From an uncultured Candidatus Saccharibacteria bacterium (lineage in GTDB: Bacteria > Patescibacteriota > Minisyncoccia > Minisyncoccales > MHMH01), in the NCBI GenBank assembly GCA_964393465.1, contig CAYMTT010000001.1:1-62246 (forward strand): a stretch of 62,246 nt of DNA. Reading direction: 5' to 3'. Below the pieces are notes generated by a model that had not been told where the DNA came from, searched no databases, and was given only the letters and a program-made list of their open reading frames with translations. Made by a program: the position numbers and the translations under genes. The first letter of the stretch is position 1. Each line of letters starts with the position of its first letter. Below are positions 13,827 to 55,987 of the stretch, in pieces.

Positions 13827-14641
13827 AATTTAAAAAGTTTTTGGGCGTTTTCAGAGGTGATTTCGGCTATTTCCTTATAGCTCATATCCTTTAATTTAGC
13901 AATTTTCTCTGCCACTCTTTTTACGAACAAAGGCTCGTTGCGCCCGGTTTCAGGGGGAGGGGTCAGATAGGGGCAGTCTGTCTCTATGAGAATCCTTTCC
14001 AAAGGAACCCTTTTTATTATCTCGTCGCAGTCAAGCTTGAAAATCAAGCCGTTGAATCCCAGATAAAAACCTTTTTCCAGATAGAGTTTGGCCTGCTCCC
14101 AATTTCCGGTAAAACAATGGACCACTCCCGGAAGCGAAGGATCGACAAGCTCCAAAAAGTCGTCGTGGGCGAATCGGCAGTGAAAAATCATGGGCAGATT
14201 CAGGTCTTTGGCCAAGCCCTGCTGCTCGAGAAAGGCTTTTTTCTGCTTTTCCTTGAAAAGCTCTAACTTTCTTCTGGTCTTGGGCTTGTAGTAATAATCC
14301 AAGCCGATTTCCCCTATTGCCACCACTTTATCGCTGCTTTTTGCCAGCTCTCTGTATTTTTCGCGGTCGAATTGCTCTTGGCGCGACTGAATCTGGATTT
14401 CTTCCGGATCTATTTTTATCTTGACCAAACCGGTCTCCAAATGAATAGGATGGAGCCCGACCGCCGCCCAGACGCCCTCTCGGTGGCGCTCGGCCAGTTC
14501 CACGGCCCTGAAGCTGGTGGAGTACTGGGAACCCACGTTTATAACGGAAACTCCTCCTTCAAGGGAGCGTTCAACGACCCGGTCGGAATCTTCCCTGTAA
14601 GCGTTGAAATTCAGATGGGCGTGGGTGTCTATGATCTTCAT
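13823..14641 (-). CDS. tatD: TatD-family metal-dependent hydrolase/DNase
   Basis: 272 aa. IIDTHAHL N-terminus, IGEIGLDYY, and HCF..G motifs. Confidence 0.85.
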   Translation of the reverse strand: MKIIDTHAHLNFNAYREDSDRVVERSLEGGVSVINVGSQYSTSFRAVELAERHREGVWAAVGLHPIHLETGLVKIKIDPEEIQIQSRQEQFDREKYRELAKSSDKVVAIGEIGLDYYYKPKTRRKLELFKEKQKKAFLEQQGLAKDLNLPMIFHCRFAHDDFLELVDPSLPGVVHCFTGNWEQAKLYLEKGFYLGFNGLIFKLDCDEIIKRVPLERILIETDCPYLTPPPETGRNEPLFVKRVAEKIAKLKDMSYKEIAEITSENAQKLFKL

Positions 14642-16038
14642 ATTCTCGGAAACAAAGGCCGGCTCTCCCTTTTTTCAATCTGCTCCAGTATTTTTTCTGC
14701 GGTTTCCGGCAAAAAAGCCCTTAATGTTAAAGCGATTTCTCTTAAAGCAAAAAGTAAACTTCCCAAAACCTCGGGGTCTTTGGTTTCCCAGGGCTTTTCC
14801 TTTTCGATATACCTGTCGCACCATCCCATCAATTCCCAAAGGGCAGCCAAGGCCTCGCTAAATCTGAAATCTTCCAGGCTTTCTTCCGCCCTTTTTTTGA
14901 ATTTCTCCACCGGGATTTTTTTGAAATTGGAAATTTCAGAATCCTTGGCCAAAGTCACTATTCTGGCCGTGAGATTGCCCAGGCCTTTGGCCAAATCGGA
15001 ATTATACCGCTTTTCGAATTTTTCGACGGTAAAATCCCCGTCCTGGGTCGGGGGAATTTCGCTCAGGAGAAAATATCTGACCGGATCCGCTCCGTATTTT
15101 TCCACCAGCTCGAAAGGATCTATAATATTCCCGAGGGATTTTGACATTTTCTGGCCTCCGACCGTAATGAATCCATGGATGAAAACCGCCTTGGGCAATT
15201 CAATCCCCAGAGAAAGAAGCATGCCGGGCCAGATGAGACAATGAAATTTCTGGATATCCTTGCCTATGCAGTGCAAGTCGGCAGGCCAGTATTTCTTGAA
15301 CTGGGGAGAGTTCGGATATCCCAAAGCGGAAATGTAATTGACCAAAGCGTCGCCCCAGACGTAAATGGTTTGGCTCGGATCTCCGGGAACGGGAATCCCC
15401 CATTTTAAATCTTCGGAAGGCCGAGAAAAGCTTATATCCTCCAGGCCCTGCCCGGCAAAATTGAGCATTTCCTTTTTCCGGCTTTCGGGCATTATCTCGA
15501 TTTGCCCTTTTTCGACGGCCTTTTCTATTTTTTCGGAATAGCGGGAAAGTCTGAAAAAATAATTTTCTTCCTCAATGACTTCCGGCTCTTTTTTGTGTAC
15601 GGCGCATCTTCCCTCGAACAAATCCTTTTTGGTTATGAATGCTTCGCAGCCCGAACAATAAAAGCCTTTGTATTTTTTTTTGTATATATCCCCGTTTCTT
15701 TCCAGCTTCCGCCAAACTTCCTGAACGGCGGGCCAATGCTTTTTTTTGTCGCTGGTTCTGATAAAATCGTCGTTGGAAAGATTTAAAATTTTCGTGAGCT
15801 CTCTGAATTTGAAAGAGACCTTATCGGTAAAATCTTCGGGGGTCTGGCCCGATTCTTCGGCGGCGGCGATCACTTTTTTTCCGTGCTCGTCGGTCCCGGT
15901 AAGAAAAAAAACGTCTTTTCCCGAAAGCCTCGCTGATCTGGCTATAACGTCGGCTTGGACGGTTTCCAAAGCGTAGCCCAAATGAGGAAAGGAATTAACG
16001 TAAGCGATGCTGGTTGTGAGATAGAATTTATCTGACAT
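14638..16038 (-). CDS. metG: Methionyl-tRNA synthetase (short form, no C-terminal tRNA-binding domain)
   Basis: 466 aa. SFPHLGYALE (HIGH-like), a CSGCE zinc knuckle, and QKMSKSLGN. Confidence 0.95.
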   Translation of the reverse strand: MSDKFYLTTSIAYVNSFPHLGYALETVQADVIARSARLSGKDVFFLTGTDEHGKKVIAAAEESGQTPEDFTDKVSFKFRELTKILNLSNDDFIRTSDKKKHWPAVQEVWRKLERNGDIYKKKYKGFYCSGCEAFITKKDLFEGRCAVHKKEPEVIEEENYFFRLSRYSEKIEKAVEKGQIEIMPESRKKEMLNFAGQGLEDISFSRPSEDLKWGIPVPGDPSQTIYVWGDALVNYISALGYPNSPQFKKYWPADLHCIGKDIQKFHCLIWPGMLLSLGIELPKAVFIHGFITVGGQKMSKSLGNIIDPFELVEKYGADPVRYFLLSEIPPTQDGDFTVEKFEKRYNSDLAKGLGNLTARIVTLAKDSEISNFKKIPVEKFKKRAEESLEDFRFSEALAALWELMGWCDRYIEKEKPWETKDPEVLGSLLFALREIALTLRAFLPETAEKILEQIEKRESRPLFPRI

Positions 16039-17187: not shown

Positions 17188-18213
17188 TTACAGGACGACC
17201 GCTTTTTCTTCTTTGCGCTTCTTGAGGAAATCCCTGCCGAATTCGAACAGCAGTCCGGCTATGGGAATTCCCAGAACCGCTCCCATTATTCCCCAAAGCT
17301 TCCCTCCGACTATGACGGCAATCAGAACCAGGGCCGGGGGCAAACCGATGAATCTTTTGGTCAGAACCGGGGTCAAGATATTGCCTTCTATCTGCTGGAT
17401 GATAACGTAAGCTATCAGGAAAAAGAGCCCTTTCATCCAAAAGCTGGCCGCCGCAATGACGGTAATCACCAAACCGGCCATTATGGCCCCGATATAGGGG
17501 ATGAAATTCAAAATTCCGGCAAAAAAAGCGAAAGAAACGGCGTAATCTATTTTCAATACGTAACAGGTCAGATAAGTCGTTAAGGCGATGAACAAGCTGG
17601 CCAGGATCTTGGCTCCGAACCAACCGCTGACCTTTTTCTGGCTTTTCTGCCAGATGTTCAGGACCACGGCTTCATATTTTTTCGGAGTAAGAAGCATCAT
17701 CCCGCGCTCTGCCCCCCTTTCTTCGAAAGACAGGAAAAGGGCTATGGAAAAAATGGTAATGGTGGAAAAAACGCCTCCGAAAATGGCTCCCATGGCAGTA
17801 AATATGTTGGCCGAGGCCTTGTTAAGCTCCTGCTCGATCGTTTCGGAAAACTTGTCGAAATTCTCAAAAGCTTCTATTCCCAGCCCCTGCAAGGGGGGAG
17901 ATATTTTTTCGAAGTATTCGGAAAAAGAAAGCGAAAACTGCTGGATTTCTGCCACAAAGACAGGAGCTACCAGATATACGGATCCTCCCAGTATTCCGAA
18001 AATCAAGGTGTATATCAAAACTACGGCCAAAGAACGGGGCATAAACTTTTTTAAAAACTCGATGGCCGGATTGAAAAGCACGGAAATTATCAAAGCGAAG
18101 ATTATCCAGATTAAAATATCTTTTATCAGATAGAAGAAATAAAAGGCCAGACCGGTAATGGCGATCTTCAAAATGGTCGCCCAGGAAATGTCCAATAATT
18201 TGTTTTCGCTCAT
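17188..18213 (-). CDS. AI-2E family transporter (PerM/UPF0118)
   Basis: 341 aa with about 8 TM helices. The topology and the C-terminal IPIAGLL segment are typical of the family. Confidence 0.8.
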   Translation of the reverse strand: MSENKLLDISWATILKIAITGLAFYFFYLIKDILIWIIFALIISVLFNPAIEFLKKFMPRSLAVVLIYTLIFGILGGSVYLVAPVFVAEIQQFSLSFSEYFEKISPPLQGLGIEAFENFDKFSETIEQELNKASANIFTAMGAIFGGVFSTITIFSIALFLSFEERGAERGMMLLTPKKYEAVVLNIWQKSQKKVSGWFGAKILASLFIALTTYLTCYVLKIDYAVSFAFFAGILNFIPYIGAIMAGLVITVIAAASFWMKGLFFLIAYVIIQQIEGNILTPVLTKRFIGLPPALVLIAVIVGGKLWGIMGAVLGIPIAGLLFEFGRDFLKKRKEEKAVVL

Positions 18214-19505
18214 TTTTTTAAAATATTAATGAATTTATTTTTATCCTTGAAAGGGCCCAGCAAGGCCAGGTTTAGTTTGGCGGGCTTGAAAATTTCCCGA
18301 GAAGCTTCAATAACGTCTTCCGAAGAAACTTTGTCTATTTTTTTGTAGACCTCTTCGGGAGTCAAAATCCTTTTTTCCAGAATCTCCTGGCTGCCGTAAA
18401 AAGAAGCCAAAGCGTCGGAAGACTCCAAAAGCAGGGCCATTTTCCCTTTCATGTATTCTTTGGCTTTTTTCAGCTCCTTGGAAGAAATTTCGGTTTTAGC
18501 CAATTTACGGTATTCTCTTAAAATGACAGAAACCGCTTTTTCCGCGTTTTTGTTATCCACTCCGGCCTGGGTCATCAAATAACCGGTGTCCGGATTGGAA
18601 TCGCAGGAAGTCTTGATATAGTATGCCAAGCCCAGTTTTTCCCTCACTTCCATAAAAAGACGGGAGCTCATCATGCCTCCGAGAATCACGGCCAAGATTT
18701 CCTGAGAGTATCTTTTCGGGTGGAAAAGATTGTATCCCCTAGCTCCCAGGCAGAGATGGGTTTGGTCGGTCCGGCGAAAATGAAGAAGGCATTCCGGCTT
18801 TGATTGTTTTTCTACCACTTCCGGTTTTGAAAAAGGATCGTCGGCGCTTATCCCCGAAAAATATTTTTTGACTTTATCTGCCACCGAATTTTCAATACTG
18901 CCCGAAACGCAAACTATGGTGTTAGAAGCCGTATATTGCCTTTTCATGTAAGAGAAAAGTTCTTTTCTTCCCATTTTTTGCACAGTTTCTTTAGTTCCGG
19001 CAATGTCCCAGCCGGCCGGCTGATCCCCATATAAAAGCCTGTTCCAGAGAATTTCGACATAGGCCATTGGATGGTCGCGCCTCATGTTTATCTCTTCCAG
19101 AATCACCCCTTTCTCCTTTTTTATCTCCGTGGAAGGCAAAAGGCTATTCAGAAAAATGTCGGAAACCCAGTCCAAGGCCAGATCTATTTTGGCGGCCCTC
19201 ACTTTGGCATAATATCCCGTATATTCCTCCCCGGTGAAAGCGTTGTAAATTCCCCCGATCTTGTCCAAGGTTTCGGCTATCTCCAGCTTGTCCGGCCTCT
19301 TTTTCGTTCCTTTGAAAAACATGTGCTCGAGAAAATGGGAAACTCCGGAGATCTCCCTGGTTTCGTATTTGGAACCGGTTCCCACCAAAACCAAAACCGT
19401 CACCGCCCGGGTCCCTTTCTGAGGGACGGTGATAATCCTCAGTCCGTTTTTCGAAACGGTTTTTTCGTACATAGCTTCTTTAATTATATCCCATTGCGGA
19501 AACAT
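18210..19505 (-). CDS. M16-family zinc peptidase (insulinase-like)
   Basis: 431 aa. HxxEH zinc motif in HFLEHMFFKGT. Confidence 0.85.
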   Translation of the reverse strand: MFPQWDIIKEAMYEKTVSKNGLRIITVPQKGTRAVTVLVLVGTGSKYETREISGVSHFLEHMFFKGTKKRPDKLEIAETLDKIGGIYNAFTGEEYTGYYAKVRAAKIDLALDWVSDIFLNSLLPSTEIKKEKGVILEEINMRRDHPMAYVEILWNRLLYGDQPAGWDIAGTKETVQKMGRKELFSYMKRQYTASNTIVCVSGSIENSVADKVKKYFSGISADDPFSKPEVVEKQSKPECLLHFRRTDQTHLCLGARGYNLFHPKRYSQEILAVILGGMMSSRLFMEVREKLGLAYYIKTSCDSNPDTGYLMTQAGVDNKNAEKAVSVILREYRKLAKTEISSKELKKAKEYMKGKMALLLESSDALASFYGSQEILEKRILTPEEVYKKIDKVSSEDVIEASREIFKPAKLNLALLGPFKDKNKFINILKK

Positions 19506-19553: not shown

Positions 19554-20867
19554 TTAACAGCCGTCTATTTTTTCTCTTAAAACTCGGGGGGCTTCCGAAA
19601 TTTTCACCCTTTCCTGTTTCATGGTATCCCTGTCTCTCAGGGTGAAATCGTCTTTCTCCAAGCTTTCAAAATCCAAAGTCAGACAGAAAGCCGTTCCTAT
19701 TTCGTCCTGCCTTCGGTAGCGGCGCCCGATGGAGCCGGTTTCGTCGTAGCGGCAGGAAAAACAAGGATTCAAAATGTCGTAAAGCTGCTTGGCTTTTTTG
19801 ATTATTTCCGGCTTGTTTTTGACCAAAGGGAGAACGGCCGCCTTAACTGGAGCCAGTTTTCTGTGAAGGTCGAGCATGACTTCCATTTCCTTGGAAGATT
19901 CGGTGGTTTCGGTCCTGCCTCCCTTGACCTCTTTATAGCTATCGACGAGAAAAGCCAGAAAACCTCTGTCCGCTCCTCCGGAAGTTTCTATGACGTAAGG
20001 GAAATATCCTTCATACTTTAAATCTTTTCCCGAATGTTTGGAGTGGTTGGAAAGGTCCCAGTCTCCCCGGTTGTGAATCCCCTCTATTTCCTTCCATCCG
20101 AAAGGAAACTTGTATTCGATATCCACCGCTCTTTTTGCATAATGGGCAAGTTCTTTTTTGGGCACTTCCTTGAATCTCAAATTCTTCTTTTCCACTCCCA
20201 AATCCAAATACCATTTCATTCTGGCTTCTTTCCAGTATTCGAAAAACTCGTCGGCGTCTTCGGGATGGCAAAACCACTGCATTTCCATCTGCTCGAACTC
20301 CCGGGTCCTGTAAATGAAATTGCCCGGGGTTATTTCGTTCCTGAAAGATTTGCCTATTTGGGCTATGCCGAAAGGCAGCTTCAAACGGGAAGAAGTCATT
20401 ACGTTCTCGAAATTGACGTAAATTCCCTGGCAGGTTTCAGCTCTCAAATAAGTGACCGAAGCTTCATCCTCGACCGGACCTACGAATGTCTTCATCATCA
20501 AGTTGAATTTGCGGGGCTCCCCCAGTTTTCCTCCGCAGTCGGGGCATTCGTCTTTTTCAAGAAAATCCTTCCTGAAGCGGCGGTGGCATTCCCGGCATTC
20601 CACCAGCTCGTCGGTAAATCCGGCCGTCAAATGCCCCGAGGCTTCCCAAATCCTGGGACTCATCAAGATAGCGGAATCCAAACCCACTATATTATCGCGT
20701 TTTCTAACCATTTCCTGCCACCAAACATTCTTAACATTGTTTTTCATTTCCACTCCCAAGGGCCCGAAATCGTATCCCGAGCCGAACCCCCCGTAGATTT
20801 CAGAGGAAGGGAATATGAAACCGCGCCTTTTGCAGAGAGATATTATTTTTTGCATTAAATCTTCCAT
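19554..20867 (-). CDS. glyQS: Glycyl-tRNA synthetase (class II, alpha2 type)
   Basis: 437 aa. RRGFIFPSSEIYGG N-terminus, class II motifs, and a C-terminal anticodon-binding domain. Confidence 0.9.
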   Translation of the reverse strand: MEDLMQKIISLCKRRGFIFPSSEIYGGFGSGYDFGPLGVEMKNNVKNVWWQEMVRKRDNIVGLDSAILMSPRIWEASGHLTAGFTDELVECRECHRRFRKDFLEKDECPDCGGKLGEPRKFNLMMKTFVGPVEDEASVTYLRAETCQGIYVNFENVMTSSRLKLPFGIAQIGKSFRNEITPGNFIYRTREFEQMEMQWFCHPEDADEFFEYWKEARMKWYLDLGVEKKNLRFKEVPKKELAHYAKRAVDIEYKFPFGWKEIEGIHNRGDWDLSNHSKHSGKDLKYEGYFPYVIETSGGADRGFLAFLVDSYKEVKGGRTETTESSKEMEVMLDLHRKLAPVKAAVLPLVKNKPEIIKKAKQLYDILNPCFSCRYDETGSIGRRYRRQDEIGTAFCLTLDFESLEKDDFTLRDRDTMKQERVKISEAPRVLREKIDGC

Positions 20868-22523: not shown

Positions 22524-23233
22524 ATGTTTTTATTATAGCATTCCGACAATTTTTTCAACATTTTCATATTGGCAGGATCGAATTTCAATCGAGACAAGGT
22601 CTGGACGTCTTTTTTCAAAATGAGTCTGATTATCTTTACCGCGTCAGCTCCTATCTCCAAAGAATCTTCAGCCTTTCCCGAGCAAGAAGAGCAAAGCACT
22701 CCCCCAGTTTCGAAAGAAAAAAACAATTCTTCCGGAACCGGCTTTTTCTGGCAAAGACAGCAGCTGTAGAGTTCGGGTCTGTAGCCGAGGATCGAAACCA
22801 GATTCCAGAAAAAATAATCGTAAATGAGCCCGGCTTCAAAAATGCGCGAACCGGGCTTTTCCAGCTCGGCCATAACTTCCGACAGCAAGTTCCAGACATG
22901 ATCGTCTTTTTCTTCTCCGGACACGAAATCTTGCAGGGTTTGGCACATCGAAGAAACCGTTTCCAGCTTTTCCAAATCCTTTCTGATATTGGGGAAATTC
23001 TCTATCAAAAGGGCATCGGTAAGGGTTTTGTAGGTTTTCCCCTGGATAAACTCTATTTCCGAAAGATAAAAGAGTTCGGCTCCCGATCGCAGTTTCGACT
23101 TTATCTTCCTGATTGCTTTTCCCAAAACTTCCAATTTGCCGAAGTCTTCGGTATAAACGGTAAAAATATAATCCGATTCGCCTCTTTCTTTTTTTGCCAG
23201 AAAGAATCCTTTGGTCCTGTGATGAGTGGCCAT
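22520..23233 (-). CDS. recO: DNA repair protein RecO
   Basis: 237 aa. An OB-fold N-terminus (ESDYIFTVYTEDFGKLEVLGKAIRK) and a CxxC...CxxC zinc motif (CCLC...CSSC). Confidence 0.85.
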   Translation of the reverse strand: MATHHRTKGFFLAKKERGESDYIFTVYTEDFGKLEVLGKAIRKIKSKLRSGAELFYLSEIEFIQGKTYKTLTDALLIENFPNIRKDLEKLETVSSMCQTLQDFVSGEEKDDHVWNLLSEVMAELEKPGSRIFEAGLIYDYFFWNLVSILGYRPELYSCCLCQKKPVPEELFFSFETGGVLCSSCSGKAEDSLEIGADAVKIIRLILKKDVQTLSRLKFDPANMKMLKKLSECYNKNI

Positions 23234-23604
23234 TATATGTTAGCGTTCTTGTTCCAGTGATCCAGTTGGGTTATTTTCTGCTTGAGCTCTTTTTCTTTTT
23301 TAAAATCCCCTTTGCGCTTAGCTTCCCAACGCTCTTTGGTCATTTTTTTTATGGCCTCGTTAAATTTTCTCTGATCCAAACCGTAAGAGCCTCCGGCGTA
23401 TTTTTTCAATTCGTCCATGAAAGCCGCTCTTTCTTTTTTGCCGAGCTTTCTGGCGGTCCCGGGAACTTTGGCAAAAGGAGCCTTTTTCCTGGCATACCAG
23501 TTAAGCTCTTTATAGGTGCGGTATTTTTTTTGGCCGAAAAATCCTCCCGGAGCTTTTTGGGACTGCTGTTTGTTTTTTTTGGGTGGTCCGCCGAAAATTG
23601 ACAT
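23233..23604 (-). CDS. Hypothetical highly basic protein
   Basis: 123 aa, Lys/Arg-rich, with no motif I recognise. It sits between ileS and recO with a 1-nt overlap to recO, so it is probably co-translated. Confidence 0.5.
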   Translation of the reverse strand: MSIFGGPPKKNKQQSQKAPGGFFGQKKYRTYKELNWYARKKAPFAKVPGTARKLGKKERAAFMDELKKYAGGSYGLDQRKFNEAIKKMTKERWEAKRKGDFKKEKELKQKITQLDHWNKNANI

Positions 23605-23631: not shown

Positions 23632-26600
23632 TTAATATTTCTTTACTCCCAGCCAGAGCTTTTTCCCGTCGATACTGGTTTCTTTTTCCGAGTCGAAAAC
23701 CCGGCTTTCTTTCGCGCCAGCCTCCAACTCTGTGAGCCTGGCCTCTTTTAAAATGAATTCTTTTTTCCTGGAAAAAACCTCGTCGAGCTCTCCAGAATAG
23801 CGGATCCCTATCCTGTCTTTGGGCTTGTAGCCGGCTTTTTTTCTCATTTCCTGAATGTGCCTTATAATCTCCCTGATGTTTCCCTCTTCTTTCAAAGCAG
23901 GAGTGATGTCGGTGTCCAGCTTCAAGGATTTGCCGAAAGAAACTTTTTTCACGTTGACCTCTTCCTTGATCAGGTCTTCCAGCTCCTTTTGGAGCTTCAA
24001 GGGAACCTGCAATTCTGCCAAAGGCTGGCGTATTTTTATGCCGGCGTTCGATCTCTCTTTGAGGGCTTCTGTCACCGTCTGGCGGACTTTTTCCATCTGC
24101 CTTTCCAGCTTTTCGTCTATAAGTTTTTTGTCGGCCCGGGGCCAGTCGTCCAGATGAACGCTTTTGAATTTGCCTTGGTAAATATGGTCGCTCAAAAAGG
24201 GAATAAAAGGAGCGGTAAGCCTGCTCAAGACGTGAAGGACGAAACTCAAAGTCTGGGAAGATTCCCTAAGCTCTTTCTTGGATTCGGGTTTCTGGAATCT
24301 TTTTCTGGACCTTCTGATATACCACAAGGAAAGGTCGTTGACGACGAAATTCTCTATGGCTCTGGCCGCCGAAGTAATGCCGTAAGATTCAAATTGCGAG
24401 GTCGCCTGCAGAACCAGGCCGTTCAGTTTGGAAATTATCCATTTATCCAAAAGGTCGGAGCTTCCGGAAAATTTCGGCCCGATGCCTTTCGGAGCATAAG
24501 TTCTCAGAAAAACCCAGCTGTTCCAGTAGGTGAGAATGAATTTTTTCAGGGCTTGATCCACGTCCTTTTCCGAAAAGAGTTTGGAATCTCCGGGCCGGTT
24601 GATGGTAAAAAAGCACCATCTTACGGCGTCCACTCCGTATTTTTCGATTATCTGCCGAGGATCGATCACGTTGCCTTTGGACTTTGACATCTTCTCCCCT
24701 TTTTCATCCAGAATATGGCCAACGGAAATGACGTTTTTGAAAGCCGGGCCCTTGCCCAGCAGGCCGGAAATGGCGTGCAGGGTGTAAAACCAGCCTCTGG
24801 TCTGATCTACGGCTTCGCAGATGTAATTTGCCGGAAAGAGTATTTTTTTGTCGAAAGGGTAATGGTACTGGGCAAAGGGCATGGAGCCGGAATCAAACCA
24901 GCAGTCTATAACGTCCGGGACCCGCTCAGTATTGCCGCCGCATTCCGGACATCGGAATTTAACCTTGTCTATGTAAGGGCGGTGGAAATCGACTTTTCCC
25001 TGGCCGTCCAAAGGAATCTTTTTGTATTCCAGCTTTCTCCACTCCCCGGTCTGGATGCTTTTTTTGAGGATTTTTTTTCTGAGCAGCTCTTTGTCGCTCC
25101 AGCCTTTAAAAACCCCTTCCAAAAGCCAGAGAGGATCGCCGTGGCTTATAATCAAAATGTTCTTTTTGCGATGCTTTTTGTCTATTTCCTCCAGGTAATC
25201 GAACATTCTTTTCCTGACCCCGCCCCAGTTCTCTCCCCCTTTGGGAGGCCTGGCGTAAAAGCTTTCTTCTGCCAAGGGAAAATCTTTATAGAATTTTTCC
25301 TTTTTATCCCCGTGATAAACTCCGAGATTGAAATCCCTGAGCCTTTTATCGAAAACGACTTCCTTCACTCCCAGTTTTTTTGAAACTATGCCGGCCGTCT
25401 GCTTGGTCCTGAAAATATCCGAAGAGTAAATGAGGTCTATTTTTTTGTTCTTGAGTTCTTTTGCCGACTTTTCAACCTGTTTTATCCCTTTTTCGGTAAG
25501 CTTGACGGGCTTTTTCTCCGGCCAAGGATAAGTGAAATCGGCCTTTTTTAATTGGTATGCGGTCTGGCCGTGCCTCAAAACGTAGTAATTATTGTCGGAA
25601 AACTTTTGGGAAATTAAATCTTTCAAAGAACCGATGACTTCCGTTTTTTTGCATTTTCCGCACTGCCAAACGGGCAAAGGGGTACCCCAGTATCTTTCCC
25701 TGGAAAAAGCCCAGTCTTTCAGATCCCTCAGCCATTCTCCGAATCTTCCTTCTTTCAAATGGGAAGGCACCCAGTTTATCTTTCTATTGTTTGCAATGAG
25801 GTCTTTTTTAACCTTCTGCATGTTTATAAACCAGCTTTCCTTGGCGTAATAAAGAAGGGCCGATTTGCAGCGCCAGCAAAAAGGATAATCGTGCTCGTAA
25901 AGCTCCTGGGCGAACAGAGTGCCTCTTTTTTTCAGCAGCTGCAGGATCAGACTTTCTGTCGAGGCGTCCTTGACGTAAAGTCCTTCCAGGTCCGGAAGGC
26001 CTTTGATGAATCTGCCGGATTGATCGACCGTATGAAAAGTCGGAAGGCCAACCTTTTTTCCCAGATCGTAGTCCTCTTCTCCGTACATAACGGCGGTGTG
26101 CACCACGCCCGTGCCTTCTTCCTCTTTGACAAAATCTGCCGGATACACCTTGTATGATTTTTCGGTTTTCAATTGTGGAACGTCAAAAAGAGGCTCGTAT
26201 TCTTTCCCCAAAAGAGAAGAACCCTTGAAAGTCTCCACTTGGGAAAATTGCGAACCCGAAAACTTTTCTTCGTATTCTTTGGGAAAGATGTGTTTTGAAA
26301 GAAGGTTTTGGAAAGCTCCCTTTGCCATTACTATTTTCTTTTTTTCGTCTTGAGGATCGGGAAAAATTCCGTATTCCAGTTCGGGATTGACAGCCAGGGC
26401 CACATTGCCCGGCAGCGTCCAGGGAGTGGTAGTCCAGGAAATAATGGAAACGTCTTTCCACTGGGTATCCCTAGAAACGATCTTGAATCTCAGGTAAACC
26501 GAATTTTCCTTCACTTTTTCATAGCCCAGAGCCACTTCATGAGAAGACAAAGAAGTGCCGCACCTGGGGCAGTAAGGAACCACCTTATACCCTTTGTATA

Positions 26601-27096
26601 AAAGGCCTTTTTGGAAAATCCGCTTTATTATCCACCAAACGCTTTCGATGTATTCTGGTTCGTAGGTGATGTAAGGATCGTCCATATCCACCCAGAAGCC
26701 TATCCTTTCTGTCAGCTTTTCCCAATCCTGCTTGTAGTTCCAGACCGACCGCCTGCATTCCTTGTTGAAAGCGGCTATCCCGAATTTTTCGATGTCTTTT
26801 TTGGAACGAAGCCCCAGTTTTTTCTCAATCTCCAATTCCACGGGCAGGCCGTGAGTGTCCCAGCCGGCCTTCCTCAAGACCCTGAATCCTTTCATGGTTT
26901 TGTAGCGGCAGACGATATCCTTGTAAATTCTGGCCAAAACGTGATGGAACCCGGCCTTGGCGTTGGCCGTGGGAGGGCCCTCGTAAAAAACAAAATCGCG
27001 GGCTCTTTGCCTACGTTTTACGGATTTCTGGAAAATCTCGTTATCTTTCCAGAATTTCAGCACTTTTTCTTCTATTTTCGGGAAATCCAACTGCAT
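23632..27096 (-). CDS. ileS: Isoleucyl-tRNA synthetase carrying an internal histidine-phosphatase domain insertion
   Basis: 1154 aa in a single frame. PPTANAKAGFHH (HIGH region), WTTTPWTLPGN and GTGVVHTAVMYGEEDY (CP1 editing), KMSKSKGN, and a type-2-like C-terminus. About 200 extra residues lie between WQCGKCKK...LKDL and DFHRPYIDKVKFRCPECGG. Confidence 0.92.
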   Translation of the reverse strand: MQLDFPKIEEKVLKFWKDNEIFQKSVKRRQRARDFVFYEGPPTANAKAGFHHVLARIYKDIVCRYKTMKGFRVLRKAGWDTHGLPVELEIEKKLGLRSKKDIEKFGIAAFNKECRRSVWNYKQDWEKLTERIGFWVDMDDPYITYEPEYIESVWWIIKRIFQKGLLYKGYKVVPYCPRCGTSLSSHEVALGYEKVKENSVYLRFKIVSRDTQWKDVSIISWTTTPWTLPGNVALAVNPELEYGIFPDPQDEKKKIVMAKGAFQNLLSKHIFPKEYEEKFSGSQFSQVETFKGSSLLGKEYEPLFDVPQLKTEKSYKVYPADFVKEEEGTGVVHTAVMYGEEDYDLGKKVGLPTFHTVDQSGRFIKGLPDLEGLYVKDASTESLILQLLKKRGTLFAQELYEHDYPFCWRCKSALLYYAKESWFINMQKVKKDLIANNRKINWVPSHLKEGRFGEWLRDLKDWAFSRERYWGTPLPVWQCGKCKKTEVIGSLKDLISQKFSDNNYYVLRHGQTAYQLKKADFTYPWPEKKPVKLTEKGIKQVEKSAKELKNKKIDLIYSSDIFRTKQTAGIVSKKLGVKEVVFDKRLRDFNLGVYHGDKKEKFYKDFPLAEESFYARPPKGGENWGGVRKRMFDYLEEIDKKHRKKNILIISHGDPLWLLEGVFKGWSDKELLRKKILKKSIQTGEWRKLEYKKIPLDGQGKVDFHRPYIDKVKFRCPECGGNTERVPDVIDCWFDSGSMPFAQYHYPFDKKILFPANYICEAVDQTRGWFYTLHAISGLLGKGPAFKNVISVGHILDEKGEKMSKSKGNVIDPRQIIEKYGVDAVRWCFFTINRPGDSKLFSEKDVDQALKKFILTYWNSWVFLRTYAPKGIGPKFSGSSDLLDKWIISKLNGLVLQATSQFESYGITSAARAIENFVVNDLSLWYIRRSRKRFQKPESKKELRESSQTLSFVLHVLSRLTAPFIPFLSDHIYQGKFKSVHLDDWPRADKKLIDEKLERQMEKVRQTVTEALKERSNAGIKIRQPLAELQVPLKLQKELEDLIKEEVNVKKVSFGKSLKLDTDITPALKEEGNIREIIRHIQEMRKKAGYKPKDRIGIRYSGELDEVFSRKKEFILKEARLTELEAGAKESRVFDSEKETSIDGKKLWLGVKKY
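24991..25599 (-). other. Histidine-phosphatase (phosphoglycerate-mutase-like) domain nested within ileS (about aa 500-702)
   Basis: YYVLRHGQT (RHG motif), SDIFRTKQTA (second Arg), RLRDFNLGVYHG, and NILIISHGDPL (distal His). I checked the DNA directly: 25561-25600 encodes SDNNYYVLRHGQT and 25131-25160 encodes NILIISHGDP. Confidence 0.75.
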
Positions 27097-27170: not shown

Positions 27171-28427
27171 CTACTTGAAAAATCCTTCCGGGGCCAGAAC
27201 CGCCAGCGTATAGTTTTCGATCAGATATTTTCGGGCGGCCTCCAGCAATTCTTGGCTGGTTATCCGATCGTAAACATCGGCGGTCTGCCTGTAATCGTAA
27301 TCGGGGCCGTAGTACTCGAGATCCAGTATCCTGTTGGCCCGCCAAACCGGCATTCTCATGTTTTGAACATGGAGAGACCTGTACTGGTTCTTTATCCTTT
27401 CCAGCTCTTCGGGCTTTATGAGGTTGGTTTTCAGGTCCTTGAATTCGCCCTCGATAATGCTTACCGCTTCCTTGAAATACTTCGGATCAAAACCGTAAAT
27501 GCAAGCGTAGAAAATGGCCGTCTCCTTGCAATAGCTGTCGTAGTTGCTCCCCACAAAGTACCCGATTCCTCTTCTCTCTCTCAATTCCTGGAAAAGCCGG
27601 GAAGACATTCCGAGAGAAAGAACTCCGTCCAGAAGCTTCAGCTTGTGAAAATCGTTGTAAGCCAAGCTGGGAACCTTGAACCCCAAGTCGAGATAAACCT
27701 GCCTGATGTTGGAGCTTTCCCGGAGAATCTCGGTTCTGACGTTCTTTTGGCTGAAAACCAAGTTTTGCTCCGGCAAATCTCTCGAGGGAATTCTGCCGAA
27801 AGTCTCTTCCACTTTCTTTATGAGTTCTTTTTCATCGAACTTTCCGGCAACCACGAGAACCATGTTGTTTGGCGTATAAAACCTCTTTTTGAACTGCACC
27901 ATTTTCTTGACAGAAAGCGCACCTACCGACTCCTCGGTTCCTCCCACCGTTCTTTCCAGAGAAGTCCCCTTAAACAGGGAGGGCTCGAACAGCCTGCAAT
28001 GGGTATGCATTTTGGGATCTTCAAAATCAAGCTGGATTCCCTGAAGAATGATGCTCTTTTCGAGCTCGAACTCTTCTTGATCGTACTGGAGATTGGTAAC
28101 GGCCTGATGGCTGACTTCCAAGGCCCTGTTCAATTTGGCGGGATCGGGCAGAGTTTCCGCGTAAAAAACCGTTTTTGCGTTGTCGGTAAAAGCGTTAATC
28201 TGGCTTCCGTCAAACTCCAAATCACTGGACAACTGTTCCTTGTTTCTGTAGGCGTTGCTTTTGAAAAGCAAATGCTCGGTGAAATGGCTGGCTCCGTTGA
28301 ATTTGTCGTCTTCGTTTATGGAGCCGACATTGATCGACACCAGAAGCACCGCGCTTTCCTCGCTCGGTATGAATTCGGTAAGCAAAACCAAGCCGTTCGG
28401 GAAAACCTTTCTCTTTATACCTTTCAT
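27171..28427 (-). CDS. M16-family zinc peptidase (second paralogue)
   Basis: 418 aa. HxxEH in HFTEHLLFKSN, with the same two-domain layout as 18210..19505. Confidence 0.85.
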   Translation of the reverse strand: MKGIKRKVFPNGLVLLTEFIPSEESAVLLVSINVGSINEDDKFNGASHFTEHLLFKSNAYRNKEQLSSDLEFDGSQINAFTDNAKTVFYAETLPDPAKLNRALEVSHQAVTNLQYDQEEFELEKSIILQGIQLDFEDPKMHTHCRLFEPSLFKGTSLERTVGGTEESVGALSVKKMVQFKKRFYTPNNMVLVVAGKFDEKELIKKVEETFGRIPSRDLPEQNLVFSQKNVRTEILRESSNIRQVYLDLGFKVPSLAYNDFHKLKLLDGVLSLGMSSRLFQELRERRGIGYFVGSNYDSYCKETAIFYACIYGFDPKYFKEAVSIIEGEFKDLKTNLIKPEELERIKNQYRSLHVQNMRMPVWRANRILDLEYYGPDYDYRQTADVYDRITSQELLEAARKYLIENYTLAVLAPEGFFK

Positions 28428-28539: not shown

Positions 28540-30045
28540 CTACATTTTTTCGGGAGAAGAAACTCCCATCAAGCCCAAGGTTTGCTTGAGAACGTTTTTG
28601 CAGGCCAAAGTCAGCGCCAGACGAGACCTCGTCAAATCCCGGTCTTTGGAAATGACTTGGCAGTCCCTGTAAAAGCGGTGGAAAAAAGAGGCCAGCTCCA
28701 GAGAATAGCGGGGTAATCTCTGCACCTGGTAATCCCGGGCGGTATCTTTGACTATCTCGGGGAATTCGGACAGTTTTTTTGCCAGCTCGAGCTCGGAAGG
28801 ATGCTCCGGATTTTTAAGCTCGGGCTTTAAATCGGTCTTTCTCAATATGGAGCAGATCCTGGCGTGGGCGTACTGGACGTAGTAGACAGGATTCTTGGAA
28901 GATTTCTCCCCGGCCAAATCCAGATCTATTTCCATATGGGTATCCAGGGACTTTTGCAGGTAAAAAAAGCTTGCGGCGTCCAAACCTATCAAATCCACCA
29001 GCTCTTCCAGAGAAACTATCTGCCCTTTTCTTTTTGACAGCTTTTCCCTGCCCTTTAAGGTCACCAGCTGCAAAATCAAGATATCCAAGCGCCCCTTGTA
29101 GTCCAGTATTTTGGCGGCCGCCCTGATTTTGGAAGCGTGGGCCTGGTGATCCGCTCCCAGAATGTTTATTATCCTGCCGAAGCCCTTGTCCATCTTTTCT
29201 TTATGGTAGGCAATGTCGCTCAAAAGATAGGTGGGGCTTCCGTCTTTTCTCTTTACCACCCAGTCTTTCTGGTCCCCGAACTTTGAAGTTTTTATCCACC
29301 AGGCTTCTTCTTTTTTATAGACGAGGTTCTTTTTTTCAAGCCATTCGAAAATCTTTCGGACCTTTTTTTTCTCGAAAAGGTCTTTTTCCTCGGAAACCCA
29401 CCTGTCGAACTTTATCTCGAGCTTTTTTTCTATGAACTCCCTGTTTTCTTTCATTATCTGCTCCGTTATCTTTTCCGGGTCTTCCAAACGGGATATTTTG
29501 TCCTGGAGGTAGGGGGTGTAATAAGGGAGGCCTTCTCCTTGGCCGGATTCTTTGACCTGGGAAGCGGTATCCATGACGGTTTTTATCTGCCTGCTCACCT
29601 GGGCGTCGTTGATATAGTAGTCTTTGGTTACCTTGAACCCGGCTTTTTCCAAAACTAAGGCGATGGCTTTTCCGGCAAAAGCGTTCCTGCCGTGCCCTAT
29701 GTGCAGGGGGCCGGTCGGATTGGCTGAAATGAACTCTATATTCGCTTTCTCTTTTTGAGAAAATGAACCGTATTTCCCCTTTTTCTTTAAAATCTCTTTT
29801 ACTTCCTCAGAAAGCGCCTTTTTGGACAAAAAAAGATTGATGAATCCGGGCCCGGCTGTCTCCACTTTTTCAAAAAGCTTGCATTCCAGCTTTCCGGCTA
29901 TTTCTTTGGGGTCTTTTTTGAGTTTCAGGGCCACATTGGTGGTATAGTCTCCCGGAATGTTGGAAGAAGTATGCTCTATTGAAACCTGATCGGCGGGAAG
30001 CCCGACCGCCTTGGCAATTTTCTCTTTTATTTCCTCTCTGATCAT
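28540..30045 (-). CDS. argS: Arginyl-tRNA synthetase
   Basis: 501 aa. SANPTGPLHIGHGRN (HIGH) and a C-terminal DALR anticodon-binding region ending ...GVSSPEKM. Confidence 0.92.
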   Translation of the reverse strand: MIREEIKEKIAKAVGLPADQVSIEHTSSNIPGDYTTNVALKLKKDPKEIAGKLECKLFEKVETAGPGFINLFLSKKALSEEVKEILKKKGKYGSFSQKEKANIEFISANPTGPLHIGHGRNAFAGKAIALVLEKAGFKVTKDYYINDAQVSRQIKTVMDTASQVKESGQGEGLPYYTPYLQDKISRLEDPEKITEQIMKENREFIEKKLEIKFDRWVSEEKDLFEKKKVRKIFEWLEKKNLVYKKEEAWWIKTSKFGDQKDWVVKRKDGSPTYLLSDIAYHKEKMDKGFGRIINILGADHQAHASKIRAAAKILDYKGRLDILILQLVTLKGREKLSKRKGQIVSLEELVDLIGLDAASFFYLQKSLDTHMEIDLDLAGEKSSKNPVYYVQYAHARICSILRKTDLKPELKNPEHPSELELAKKLSEFPEIVKDTARDYQVQRLPRYSLELASFFHRFYRDCQVISKDRDLTRSRLALTLACKNVLKQTLGLMGVSSPEKM

Positions 30046-30119: not shown

Positions 30120-30569
30120 ATGGCGGTGCTTTCAAACAACAGAAAAGCGTATTTCAACTATGAAATCCTGGAAACTTTCGAGGCCGGAATGGTTTTGGAA
30201 GGCCACGAGGTAAAATCGGTGAAACTGGGCAGAATGAACCTGGCCGGCTCCCATATAGTGCTCAAAGACGAGGAAGCCTATTTGCTCAACGCCCAAATTC
30301 CCCCTTACCAGCCCAAAAACACGCCCGAAGGCTACGATCCTTCCAGGCTGAGAAAACTCCTATTGAAAAAAGACGAACTGAACTATTTAATCGGCAAATC
30401 CCAGCAGAAGACCTTGACTTTAGTGCCCCTTAAGGTGTATACTAAGAAAGGCAAAATCAAGCTGGAATTCGGAGTCGGCAGAGGAAGGAAGAAAGTGAAC
30501 AAAAAGGAACTGTTAAAGAAAAGAGCGACCGACAGGGAAATAGAAAGGGAAATGAAATCAAGGGGATGA
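30120..30569 (+). CDS. smpB: SsrA-binding protein SmpB
   Basis: 149 aa. NRKAYFNYEILETFEAGMVLEGHEVKS with a basic C-terminal tail. Confidence 0.95.
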   Translation: MAVLSNNRKAYFNYEILETFEAGMVLEGHEVKSVKLGRMNLAGSHIVLKDEEAYLLNAQIPPYQPKNTPEGYDPSRLRKLLLKKDELNYLIGKSQQKTLTLVPLKVYTKKGKIKLEFGVGRGRKKVNKKELLKKRATDREIEREMKSRG

Positions 30570-30923
30570 CACAGCTTAGATGGAAGATCTTTTTTCAAAA
30601 CGCGCAAGCCGAGTTTGCCAGAATCTCGCTAAACTTCCGGCACAGAATAAGTGCCAACTTATTCAAACAACCAGCTTTAGCTCACGCACACGCGTAAGGC
30701 ATAAGCCATCTTCTTTATGGACTCTCGATAAATAAAGAAGGTGTCATAAACTCGAGATAGGCAGGCCCTTTTGATTCGGGAGAGCCGCCGAAAAAACAAC
30801 CGAATCGAAACCTCGAGGCTCTTCGTCCGGTTCCAGGCCTCAGGTTTTTCTTCCAACCGGGCTAAGCTTGTAGAAGCTTTTTGGAAAAGCTTCCAGACGT
30901 GGGGGCAGTGCCCACCATCTCCA
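30562..30923 (+). ncRNA. ssrA: tmRNA (SsrA), standard one-piece form, CCA not encoded
   Basis: 5' GGGGAUG (30562-30568) pairs with 3' CAUCUCC (30916-30922), giving a G3:U70 wobble, the AlaRS identity element. Discriminator A is at 30923. The T-arm is GUGGG-GGCAGUG-CCCAC, directly abutting the acceptor strand. UGGAAG (30581-) pairs with CUUCCA (30890-) as a P2-like helix. The putative tag ORF AUAAGU-GCC AAC UUA UUC AAA CAA CCA GCU UUA GCU CAC GCA CAC GCG UAA (30653-30697) encodes ANLFKQPALAHAHA. The gene lies immediately after smpB. Confidence 0.85.
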
Positions 30924-30941
30924 CAGAACCATTTTTAAAAA

Positions 30942-33867: not shown

Positions 33868-34231
33868 TTTTGTAGGTCAACTGTTTTGACGCCTCTTTAT
33901 AAGCGAGCCACTTGTATGCTTTGTGCTCCCAGGATATTTTCACTTTTTTCGTTGTGGTTTGGGCCAAGAAAAAAACGACGGTCTTCGAAATCTTTTCTTT
34001 TTCCCTTTTGTAAAAATATCTTATCGTTTCCTTAAACCCCGGAATGAAATCGATATTACGAATACCGGTTTCTTCGAAAACTTCCCTGCGGGCGGCCCCC
34101 TCCTTGCTTTCCCCTTTTTCTATCTTGCCTTTGGAAAAATCCCAATGGCCGGAACCGTAATGCAAAAGCAGGTAAAAGTTTTTACCTTTTTCTCTTCTGA
34201 AAATTACAGCCCCGGCCGATCTTTCCGTCAT
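33824..34231 (-). CDS. NUDIX hydrolase
   Basis: Nudix box GKIEKGESKEGAARREVFEETGI. I placed the start at ATG 34231 (MTERSAGAVIF), which forms an ATGA overlap with the PolX stop. The track start at 34306 lies inside PolX. Confidence 0.85.
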   Translation of the reverse strand: MTERSAGAVIFRREKGKNFYLLLHYGSGHWDFSKGKIEKGESKEGAARREVFEETGIRNIDFIPGFKETIRYFYKREKEKISKTVVFFLAQTTTKKVKISWEHKAYKWLAYKEASKQLTYKNAKEILKKANNFLQ

Positions 34232-35952
34232 GCCGATTTTTTGCCGAAAAATTTCAAAATCTCTTTCCAGTCCATGGTATTGATTATATCTTTTTTCTCG
34301 GCCCATCCTCTCCTGGCCTGGGCTATTCCCAGCTCCATATACCTTAATTGGTCGTTCTGGTGGGAATCGGTGCTGACTACCATTTTGACCCCGGCTTCCT
34401 TGGCTCTTTTTATATTCTGGTCGTTCAAATCCAGCCTTTCGGGATGCGAATTTATTTCCAAAACCGTTCCGAATTCCCTAGCTGCTCTCAAAATTTTGTC
34501 GAGATCGCACCGGTATCCGTCCCTTCTTTTTAAAATTCTGCCGGTTGGATGGGAAATTATCCTTATATAAGGGTTTTTCATGGCCTTGATTATCCTTTCT
34601 GTCATTTCCTTCTCTGGCATGCCGAAATTCGAATGGATTCCGGCGATGGCGTAATCCAGTTCGGATAAGGCCTTGTCGTTAATGTCTATGGAGCCGTCGT
34701 TGAGAATGTTAGTTTCCGCCCCTTTTAAAATCCTGAAATCTTTCCGCTGAGAATTAAGTGCGTCTATTTTTTTGTTGCGCCTGGCAAGTTCTTTTTCGTC
34801 CAAGCCGTGCTCTATTTTCAAAAATTTAGTATGGTCGGAGATTCCCGCGTATCGATATCCCATCTTTCGGGCAGCCTCCGCTATTTCTCCGATGGAATTT
34901 TGCCCTCCATCCCAGCTAGAATGAATGTGCAAATCGCCCAGAATATCTCGGTATTCCACCAAATCGGGCAGCTTCCCTTTTAAGGCCGCTTCCACTTCTC
35001 CGCGGTTTTCCCTCATTTCCGGTGCAATCCAATTCATACCCAAGGCATTGTAAACTCCTTTTTCGGTTTTACCTGCCAAAACCTTTTTACCTTTGAAAAG
35101 CCCGTATTCGGAAAGCTTCATTCCTTTTCCCATAGCGATTTTCCTCAAAGCTATATTGTGTTCTTTGGATCCCGTGAAATACAAAAGGGCCGAGCCGTAG
35201 CTTTTTTCGGAGACCACCCTCAAGTCGATATCGAACCCCTCCTCGACCCTGACCGAAGATTTGGTGGAGCCCTTTCCCCAAACTTTCGTCACCTCTTTCT
35301 GGGAAACGAAAAACTCAACCACTTTTTCCGGCTTTTTGGAAAAAACCAAAATGTCCACGTCTCCGATGGTTTCTTTTTTTCTTCTAAAAGATCCGGCAAC
35401 GTCAATTTTTTCAACTTCGTCCAAAGACTCTAATTTTTTCCGCATTTCCCTGGCCCTAAAGACGATTTCCCCCAATAGAAACCTTCCCCTGCTTTTTTTC
35501 AAAAACTCTATTCCTTCGATAATGTTTTCTTCGGTTTTTTCCCCGAATCCCTCCAAAGAAGCTATTTTGTGCTTTCTGGCGGCCTCTTCCAAACTTTTCA
35601 AATTTCTCACTCCGAGCTCCCGATAAAGGATCTTGGCTTTTTTGGGGCCCATGCCTTCGATTCCTGTAATTTCTTCCAGTCTTAAGGGCATTCTTTTTTT
35701 AAACCGCTCATGGTGTTTTATCTTTCCGGTTTTCAGATACTCTTCTATTTTTTCAGCGATGCTTTTTCCCACTCCGGGAATTTCCTCCAAGGCCTTGATG
35801 CCGCCTTCTTTATAAAATTCTTCTACGTCTTTTTCCATGCTTTCCAAAGATAAAGCGGCCTTGCGGTAGGCGTAAGGCCTGAACTGAGCTTCTCCCATTT
35901 GAAGGTAATCTGCCAATTCGTAAAAGACTTTGGCTATTTCCCGGTTCTTCAT
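34228..35952 (-). CDS. DNA polymerase X family protein with C-terminal PHP domain
   Basis: 574 aa. Pol-beta-like N-terminus (NREIAKVFYELADYL, HhH GVGKSIAEKI, GSFRRKKETIGDVDIL) and PHP motifs (GDLHIHSSWDGG, ISDH). Confidence 0.9.
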   Translation of the reverse strand: MKNREIAKVFYELADYLQMGEAQFRPYAYRKAALSLESMEKDVEEFYKEGGIKALEEIPGVGKSIAEKIEEYLKTGKIKHHERFKKRMPLRLEEITGIEGMGPKKAKILYRELGVRNLKSLEEAARKHKIASLEGFGEKTEENIIEGIEFLKKSRGRFLLGEIVFRAREMRKKLESLDEVEKIDVAGSFRRKKETIGDVDILVFSKKPEKVVEFFVSQKEVTKVWGKGSTKSSVRVEEGFDIDLRVVSEKSYGSALLYFTGSKEHNIALRKIAMGKGMKLSEYGLFKGKKVLAGKTEKGVYNALGMNWIAPEMRENRGEVEAALKGKLPDLVEYRDILGDLHIHSSWDGGQNSIGEIAEAARKMGYRYAGISDHTKFLKIEHGLDEKELARRNKKIDALNSQRKDFRILKGAETNILNDGSIDINDKALSELDYAIAGIHSNFGMPEKEMTERIIKAMKNPYIRIISHPTGRILKRRDGYRCDLDKILRAAREFGTVLEINSHPERLDLNDQNIKRAKEAGVKMVVSTDSHQNDQLRYMELGIAQARRGWAEKKDIINTMDWKEILKFFGKKSA

Positions 35953-53972: not shown

Positions 53973-54113
53973 TCAAAGAGAGCCGCCAAAAACCTTTCGG
54001 TACAAATCGTTTATCCGCTCCTCCCTCTCTTTGGGATCTGAAAACTCCCTCCTAATGCGGGCTTTTTCTTTTCTGACGTATTTACGGATTGATTTTGGAA
54101 GTTTTTTCTTCAT
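53973..54113 (-). CDS. Hypothetical small basic protein (46 aa) translationally coupled to rtcB
   Basis: Below the ORF-track cutoff; I translated it by hand: MKKKLPKSIRKYVRKEKARIRREFSDPKEREERINDLYRKVFGGSL. Its ATG (54113-54111) overlaps the rtcB TGA (54112-54110) as ATGA. Confidence 0.4.
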   Translation of the reverse strand: MKKKLPKSIRKYVRKEKARIRREFSDPKEREERINDLYRKVFGGSL

Positions 54114-55951: not shown

Positions 55952-55955
55952 TTTA

Positions 55956-55983: not shown

Positions 55984-55987
55984 CCCA

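Follow-up and report, generated by a model that had tools for sequence, protein, structure and literature searches.

We describe here an isoleucyl-tRNA synthetase (IleRS) that carries a histidine phosphatase nested within its catalytic core, encoded on contig CAYMTT010000001.1 (assembly GCA_964393465.1) of an uncultured Candidatus Saccharibacteria bacterium from the Patescibacteriota. The whole 62,246-nucleotide stretch analyzed is hereafter called the window. This nested phosphatase-IleRS is real, widespread and, as far as searched, undescribed. Overall, the phosphatase family takes four forms, namely nested in IleRS, as a separate cistron, and as a C-terminal fusion to either ArgRS or the threonylcarbamoyl-AMP synthase TsaC, and the nested architecture has been passed down within a large clade of Parcubacteria-type Patescibacteria.

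A phosphatase within the zinc knuckle of IleRS

The ileS open reading frame (ORF; 23632..27096, minus strand, as are all features of this gene given below) encodes 1154 amino acids (aa) plus a stop in a single unbroken frame, as had been proposed in a first-pass annotation of the letters, which did not state the strand. Its N-terminal part (aa 1-496; 25609..27096) comprises the first Rossmann half, the CP1 editing domain and the start of the second Rossmann half, and its C-terminal part (aa 702-1154; 23635..24993) the remaining Rossmann fold, the anticodon-binding domain and a type-2 C-terminal domain. When aligned to the T. thermophilus IleRS (1ILE), residues 4-496 of the query correspond to chain residues 9-478 and residues 702-1020 to chain residues 488-821, such that the flanks are collinear with canonical IleRS on both sides, as first claimed, with both halves intact. 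The Pfam profiles give the same picture, with tRNA-synt_1 matching in two stretches, His_Phos_1 (aa 505-682) between them, and Anticodon_1 and DUF5915 downstream, while two structures of the editing domain, 1WK8 and 1UE0, match aa 190-405.

The motifs of the host enzyme were all verified by translation, and include the class I signature in the non-canonical form G-F-H-H (aa 49-52; 26941..26952), the TTTPWT motif of the CP1 editing domain (aa 222-227; 26416..26433) and the KMSKS loop (aa 802-806; 24679..24693). Across a 60-sequence family alignment, T222, T223, T224, P225, W226 and T227 are invariant, and G49, H51 and H52 almost so; a canonical HYGH takes the place of GFHH in some relatives in which the phosphatase is encoded by an adjacent gene (see below). 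The G/AXHH variant of HIGH is functional in part of the type-2 enzymes (IleRS2) and confers mupirocin hyper-resistance (PMC10485003). The score of the 1154-aa protein against the NCBIfam ileS model TIGR00392 (888.9 bits vs. a cut-off of 621.4), the GFHH and KMSKS motifs, and the CP1 editing, anticodon-binding and type-2 C-terminal domains place it among type-2 IleRS. A full-length AlphaFold model (mean pLDDT 76.8, parts of the Rossmann fold being of low confidence) matches the P. megaterium IleRS2 structure 8C9D with an E-value of 2.6e-73 (Foldseek). Judged by its sequence, the window gene is thus a complete type-2 IleRS, predicted to charge tRNA-Ile. Neither another His_Phos gene nor a second ileS, of which this one might be a decaying copy, was found within the 62-kb window, and both IleRS halves of the gene are intact.

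The inserted module, which has no place in canonical IleRS, spans aa 497-701 (24994..25608) as delimited by the 1ILE alignment and by the core hidden Markov model (HMM), in which it falls at position 473/474 in every nested homologue. From the gap between the two 1ILE alignment blocks, ~205 residues stand in place of a loop of ~10 residues. This interrupts a zinc knuckle, the first half of which (C479-G-K-C482; 25651..25662) lies upstream of the module and the second half (C716-P-E-C719; 24940..24951) downstream, both verified by translation and with both cysteines of each half present in 120/120 of the best homologues from a 5.8-billion-protein collection (NCBI, JGI, ENA and Logan assemblies; 56-64% identity). 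The first-pass annotation had the insert splitting the knuckle of the connective polypeptide (CP): the split CxxC...CxxC stands, and the term fits only a wider CP nomenclature (CP core, CP1, CP2 and CP3 are listed for IleRS; PMC11685878), the knuckle itself lying after the CP1 editing domain, in the second Rossmann half and ~85 residues before KMSKS. IleRS of the same clade that have no insert keep both knuckle halves, with an ordinary loop of 15-25 aa. As the knuckle halves and all IleRS motifs are intact, the insert can be described as a domain hanging in a surface loop. We take this knuckle-loop site to be the one at which bacterial LeuRS has its leucine-specific domain.

Within the module, the His_Phos_1 (PF00300) match covers aa 505-682 (25051..25584) with an E-value of 8.3e-33, scoring 114.1 bits against a gathering threshold of 21.7 over profile positions 2-177 of 194. 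A 203-aa segment taken alone reaches 3.2e-34, and PF00300 is also carried by 120/120 of the best homologues. The motifs of the histidine-phosphatase signature quoted in the first-pass annotation are present in order, at coordinates verified by translation: the RHG motif with R508 and the nucleophile H509 (25567..25575; both residues in 120/120 and aligned to the RHG of PhoE, 1EBB), the second phosphate-binding arginine R563 (25408..25410; 120/120), the acidic D588 (25333..25335), and the second catalytic histidine H652 (25141..25143; 119/120). D588 is an aspartate where PhoE has the glutamate of its RLRE motif, and this position is held by E in 70 and by D in 50 of the 120 homologues. G621-E622 and R630 are also invariant among the 120.

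These residues are kept as in a working enzyme, by 119-120 of the 120 nested homologues and by 56-59 of the 59 free-standing representatives. The phosphatase is apparently active rather than a relic, in agreement with the first-pass annotation. Residue identity to the window sequence averages 0.48 over the insert vs. 0.43 over the editing-domain region, and the insert is therefore not drifting.

An AF2 model of the insert alone has a pLDDT of 90.7 and a pTM of 0.89, and resembles solved histidine phosphatases of ~200 aa (TM 0.70-0.76, Foldseek), including GpgP Rv2419c, the S. pombe phosphoglycerate mutase (PGM), PhoE, PspA, a riboflavin-pathway HFP and CobC; by sequence, the closest is PhoE of B. 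stearothermophilus (E-value 6e-13). The prediction thus agrees with an independent fold, and the insert is, as modeled, an independently folding domain of ~200 aa. The profile score, the catalytic set and the alpha/beta fold place it among the branch-1 histidine phosphatases (PF00300).

The insert reaches no curated subfamily cut-off in NCBIfam. Its best match is to the archaeal dPGM model NF038349 (dPGM_arch; 79.2 vs. a cut-off of 225), followed by PRK07238 (RNase H / acid phosphatase; 75.6 bits vs. 326), and it also stays below the cut-offs for CobC (TIGR03162; 70.5 vs. 162.9), PspA (NF045917; 67.4 vs. 350), SixA (TIGR00249; 36 vs. 74.5) and pgm_1 (TIGR01258; 32.5 vs. 81.7), the dPGM_arch and pgm_1 scores placing it outside the dPGM family. 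Characteristic dPGM motifs are ERHYG, WRR(S/G) and HGN, for which the phosphatase family has [ED][IYVF][ND][VL]G at the ERHYG position, no WRR, and H[EG][DL]P at the HGN position. The domain is a branch-1 histidine phosphatase that is more phosphatase-like than mutase-like.

Nested, free-standing and fused forms

To what extent this architecture is shared can be seen both in the 120 best homologues, which when named come from Nealsonbacteria, Pacebacteria or “bacterium” metagenome-assembled genomes (MAGs) and are labeled at NCBI only as “class I tRNA ligase family protein,” and in a scan of GTDB with one genome per species. The scan yielded 277 pattern matches, 259 of which encode a relative of the insert, and 80 loci were kept. 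Nearly all of these are titled as Patescibacteria-type MAGs (Nealsonbacteria, Paceibacterota, Yanofskybacteria, Wolfebacteria, Minisyncoccia, “Parcubacteria group”), the off-type titles being those of L075 and L077, labeled Binatia and Acutalibacteraceae. The nested form accounts for 54 of the 80 loci, and the insert is common to a large Patescibacteria clade and not peculiar to the window genome. Since the same architecture recurs in more than 100 independent assemblies, with contigs of up to 636 kb among the nested loci, misassembly is excluded.

At the other 26 of the 80 loci the phosphatase is a free-standing ORF of ~190-207 aa, which scores 197-270 bits against the insert HMM, is 42-58% identical to the window insert and has the same boundaries. 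In 22 of these 26, an ileS without insert (~950-985 aa) lies downstream on the same strand, with its start within ~130 nt or overlapping. Among the 21 loci examined for the junction, 15 have the ileS ATG at −11 to +5 nt from the phosphatase stop, 7 of them as ATGA overlaps. One locus (L018:2466-4554) has two ORFs between the phosphatase and ileS, one with a Tsp45I-type restriction-enzyme domain, from which it appears that the pair was split by a restriction-modification-like element. Most of these loci have argS directly upstream of the phosphatase gene, and argS abuts ileS in most nested loci too. In the window, this conserved upstream operon partner (28540..30045, minus strand) is separated from ileS only by a gene annotated as an M16 peptidase (27171..28427, minus strand).

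Fusion to ArgRS, at its C-terminus, was seen in three clusters from independent assemblies, one of them just 49% identical to the query, and the junction is seamless (“...APEHM” then “FNNSYFFLRHG”). In L082 and L083, ileS begins 6 nt downstream of such a fusion, while in L081 (contig ena:ERZ27256796:k141_1091711) the argS-phosphatase fusion is followed directly by recO and ileS is absent from the locus. Gene order in L081 is otherwise close to that of the window (PolX ... argS, recO, DUF7619, class II aminoacyl-tRNA synthetase (aaRS), M16, AI-2E transporter, TP_methylase), without ileS and without the M16 gene between argS and recO.

The C-terminal fusion to TsaC is represented by four clusters (52-65% identity). 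One of these, found on 7 contigs, lies beside genes for an HD-domain CCA-adding enzyme, which is thus a near neighbor of the fusion, as well as TGT, a queuosine-salvage gene and TruD. Patescibacterial TsaC has other partners as well (proteins P0394-P0506), most often the Ogt-type PF01035 and also TruB, 2H/LigT-CPDase, Nudix, GNAT and methylpurine glycosylase. The TsaC of the window is free-standing (1671-2243) and adjoins TsaD (676-1698).

Rarer arrangements include an N-terminal fragment of ValRS with four tandem His_Phos_1 copies (P0239) and two tandem copies nested in IleRS (P0228, P0257). A further protein (P0224) has two phosphatase copies and no aaRS part, and each of these multi-copy variants that was looked up is a singleton cluster. 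An IleRS-like paralogue without the CP1 editing domain (core HMM positions 6-195 joined to 374-476) keeps the nested phosphatase (L009:5080-6600, P0208, and P0271 of 1030 aa), and in L009 it stands in tandem after a complete nested ileS.

On a neighbor-joining tree built from 923 core columns of 68 IleRS sequences, the nested and adjacent states are interleaved. Fitch parsimony requires 3-6 state changes in 100 bootstrap trees (mode 4) vs. at least 12 when states are shuffled, and the state thus changed at least three times on this tree. Pairwise identities of phosphatase and host core are poorly correlated (Spearman 0.32), the controls giving 0.93 when 184 core columns are drawn at random and 0.76 when the editing domain is used. 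This decoupling is well illustrated by the complete Nealsonbacteria genome L013, whose free-standing phosphatase is 61% identical to the window insert while the IleRS cores share just 42%. L013 belongs, with L006, L007, L017, L023 and L076, to a divergent adjacent-type IleRS2 subtype (“WLISKKRYWG...PWLDAGIV”) with ~42-44% core identity to the window, and the upstream phosphatase of this subtype clade is 51-61% identical to the window insert in the five other than L007, for which tblastn gave 51%. Rate differences, ileS replacement or module exchange could each contribute.

Three other candidate patterns were considered and rejected. The many representative ORFs that start at the insert and continue into the C-terminal half of IleRS might indicate a split ileS, but the two inspected end at a contig edge with the frame open upstream. 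A putative deletion scar in the insert-less loops (“QATNY-KLEDLHRP”) proved to consist of a phi-x-D-L-HRP element generic to insert-less IleRS2 and a TNY-like piece found in just four sequences. The motifs “SHGDPLW” and “SHELPLT” do not tell free-standing from nested forms, since both flavors occur in both states. Separately, the metagenome contigs of L084, L085 and several of the representative ORFs break off within ileS, 15-45 nt before the phosphatase begins. These recurrent contig ends may reflect strain heterogeneity, or assemblies fragmenting at the conserved flank of the knuckle.

The remainder of the window includes further genes of translation, among them those for LeuRS (9416-11821), MetRS (14638-16038) and a class II aaRS (19554-20867), and a tmRNA gene between argS and infC (30562-30926). 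The aaRS cluster is flanked by two separate M16 peptidase genes (18210-19505 and 27171-28427), and a PolX-type polymerase with a PHP domain is encoded at 34228-35952. Two ORFs gave no Pfam match, a very basic one of 123 aa between recO and ileS (23233-23604) and one of 419 aa (41157-42416).

Candidate roles of the phosphatase

The phosphatase would be an active phosphomonoesterase working via a phospho-histidine intermediate, which selection would keep in stoichiometric, physical or translational coupling with tRNA-charging or tRNA-modifying enzymes. From this retained coupling, it would act on phosphate-bearing species that tRNA enzymes meet; what the partner enzymes share is tRNA, and ATP-dependent adenylate formation with release of pyrophosphate (PPi). 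That the phosphatase is functionally coupled to tRNA enzymes in a dedicated manner, whatever its substrate, is a proposition on which we see the likelihoods as evenly poised.

For its specific role, we prefer the removal of 2'- or 3'-terminal phosphates from tRNA acceptor ends, which would enable charging, although this assignment is possible rather than probable. It is favored because all fusion partners and most neighbors are tRNA enzymes, because the nested module is strongly basic (pI 9.7, with +8 net charge per 100 aa vs. ~+4 for the IleRS core parts), and because the phylum also has TsaC proteins whose fusion partner is instead a 2H/LigT phosphoesterase. Likewise in favor of the healing of tRNA ends, two adjacent genes of the window (54110-56062, minus strand) encode Archease and RtcB, a ligase for RNA 3'-phosphate/2',3'-cyclic phosphate ends, which indicates that the organism has a system for RNA-end repair or for splicing.

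In its more general form, we tentatively propose that the phosphatase may be a dedicated, unrecognized accessory enzyme of patescibacterial tRNA charging or modification, doing a phosphate removal on which aminoacylation depends (2'/3'-end healing or PPi clearance), and repeatedly moved between free, ArgRS- or TsaC-fused, and IleRS-nested forms. Several points weigh against a coupling of this kind. To our knowledge, no branch-1 histidine phosphatase acts on RNA ends or PPi. The sequence does not reveal a substrate, with no curated subfamily threshold reached and fold neighbors that do not discriminate. Translation genes make up a large share of small genomes, which inflates chance adjacency, and a high pI is common in Lys-rich proteomes. 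TsaC in these genomes is also fused to Ogt, TruB, 2H/LigT, Nudix, GNAT and MPG, and since fusions are so promiscuous here, fusion alone is weak evidence for mechanistic coupling. Finally, two free-standing homologues are not beside an aaRS, L034 lying after FtsH and L063 near a DUF4147+MOFRL glycerate-kinase-family gene.

Some of the same observations could instead point to a metabolic phosphatase or mutase (acting, e.g., on phosphoglycerates or sugar phosphates) that is unrelated to aminoacylation and hitch-hikes in the argS-ileS operon, which is highly expressed in a streamlined genome, with nesting then serving co-expression only. PGM is reported missing from several shallow Parcubacteria clades (Jaffe et al., PMC7304191), which speaks for such an enzyme, as does the archaeal dPGM model being the best NCBIfam match. 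The structural neighbors GpgP, PhoE, PspA, S. pombe PGM and CobC are moreover small-molecule enzymes, the L063 homologue has the glycerate-kinase-family neighbor just mentioned, and functionally unrelated fusions such as TsaC-Ogt are frequent in these genomes. However, the dPGM motifs are missing from the whole phosphatase family, and the mutase models score low (32.5 vs. 81.7 for TIGR01258, 79 vs. 225 for NF038349). The linkage to tRNA enzymes, in addition, persists across divergent IleRS (core identity down to 42%), in a distinct IleRS subtype, through the loss of ileS from the locus, and in separate ArgRS and TsaC fusions. On balance we regard a metabolic role as the main rival, likewise possible rather than probable.

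A tethered pyrophosphatase (PPase), or a hydrolase of another nucleotide by-product, would remove PPi at its source and thereby pull the activation step. IleRS, ValRS, ArgRS and TsaC, as is well established, all make an acyl-adenylate and release PPi, and translational coupling implies a matched stoichiometry. Precedents can also be named, as there are PPases fused to ATP sulfurylase, and phosphoanhydrides are cleaved by AppA of branch 2, but no PPase is known from branch 1, and we hold this role to be unlikely. Neither a canonical PGM nor a canonical PPase was found among the ~50 ORFs scanned in the window, a 62-kb fragment that is uninformative for the genome as a whole in this respect.

The module lies in the Rossmann half that also holds KMSKS, ~85 residues ahead of it, a position that would suit a built-in protein phosphatase that reverses an inhibitory phosphorylation of the synthetase, e.g., of a KMSKS-loop serine by Hip-type toxin kinases. 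The superfamily does include the protein phosphatases SixA, PGAM5 and Sts-1, and HipA and HipT phosphorylate class I aaRS near KMSKS. Such a role is at odds with the C-terminal fusions to ArgRS and TsaC, the SixA model TIGR00249 is not reached (36 vs. 74.5), and no kinase was seen nearby. PADLOC-DB likewise returned no defense-protein match for the insert, the free-standing form or the whole protein. Self-reversal of phosphorylation is therefore very unlikely in our view.

Hardly more plausible is a pseudo-enzyme, i.e., a non-catalytic structural or tRNA-binding module replacing a loop or a specificity domain, for which the basic character of the module and the presumed correspondence of its site to that of the LeuRS leucine-specific domain could be cited: the five catalytic residues are essentially invariant in both nested and free-standing forms, and the insert-less IleRS within this clade work with an ordinary 15-25-aa loop. 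An artefact or parasite, whether through chimeric assembly, a mobile insertion of intein type or the decay of an ileS copy, would account for the contigs that break just upstream of the insert in several metagenomes and for the decoupled insert and host phylogenies, but is next to negligible given the more than 100 independent assemblies and long contigs, the intact IleRS motifs, the free-standing homologues that are ordinary genes, and an insert in which Pfam finds only His_Phos_1 and no Hint or homing-endonuclease domain.

Relation to known enzymes and implications

Compared to other IleRS2 (1ILE; P. megaterium 8C8U-8C9D), the window enzyme is fully collinear outside the insert and has the same CxxC...CxxC knuckle, KMSKS, type-2 C-terminal domain and GXHH, but differs by the ~205-residue phosphatase that replaces the ~10-residue knuckle loop, none being found in solved or described IleRS. 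The phosphatase in turn shares its fold, its RHG/R/acidic/H set and a length of ~190-200 aa with short branch-1 phosphatases (PhoE 1EBB/1H2E, PspA 4IJ5, GpgP Rv2419c 4PZ9, CobC, and the riboflavin HFP 9MMH). It departs from these in sequence (23-27% identity), in family-specific invariants (N502, Y504, a WPE-type motif and S559-D560) and in its coupling to tRNA enzymes.

Partial parallels exist among other enzymes. An IleRS with an extra enzyme domain has a precedent in the family with a GNAT domain (NF040702, ileS_w_GNAT), whose added domain belongs to another family and whose model the window protein does not reach (315.6 bits vs. a cut-off of 1999). Coordinate arithmetic on the partial matches hints that this GNAT may sit at the same loop. 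A CobC-like His_Phos_1 fused to a nucleic-acid enzyme is known from the RNase H/acid phosphatase (PRK07238, M. tuberculosis Rv2228c type), where the fusion is terminal and the partner another one.

An accessory hydrolytic domain that is either inserted or separate is exemplified by the INS editing domain of ProRS and the free-standing YbaK/ProXp. The present phosphatase is likewise inserted or free; INS and YbaK, however, hydrolyze mis-acylated tRNA and have another fold, whereas the phosphatase has no known editing role. Closest to the favored concept, a phosphatase on a tRNA 3'-end enzyme that heals ends, is the HD domain of the bacterial CCA-adding enzyme, whose phosphatase activity was reportedly described by Yakunin and colleagues in 2004, and whose metal-dependent fold and mechanism are unrelated.

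Full-text literature searches turned up no account of an aaRS with a phosphatase inside it or next to it, in line with the novelty suggested by the first-pass annotation. A 2026 preprint on how IleRS domains evolved has no mention of a phosphatase or of the candidate phyla radiation.

Few enzymes have been studied as thoroughly as the aaRS, and the extra domains known from them serve editing, tRNA binding or, in eukaryotes, signaling. If the proposed coupling is true, a catalytically intact phosphatase kept with IleRS, ArgRS or TsaC throughout a large clade would imply an undescribed phosphate-handling step in tRNA charging. If the role is metabolic instead, the domain may explain the reported PGM gap in some Parcubacteria, and would warn that gene-level annotation misses nested domains. 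The system lends itself to testing, with a single domain, a single catalytic histidine, and natural split and fused versions, and it offers a natural example of a whole enzyme tolerated in the zinc-knuckle loop of a Rossmann-fold catalytic core. At the least, it would represent a new way for reduced genomes to package their enzymes.

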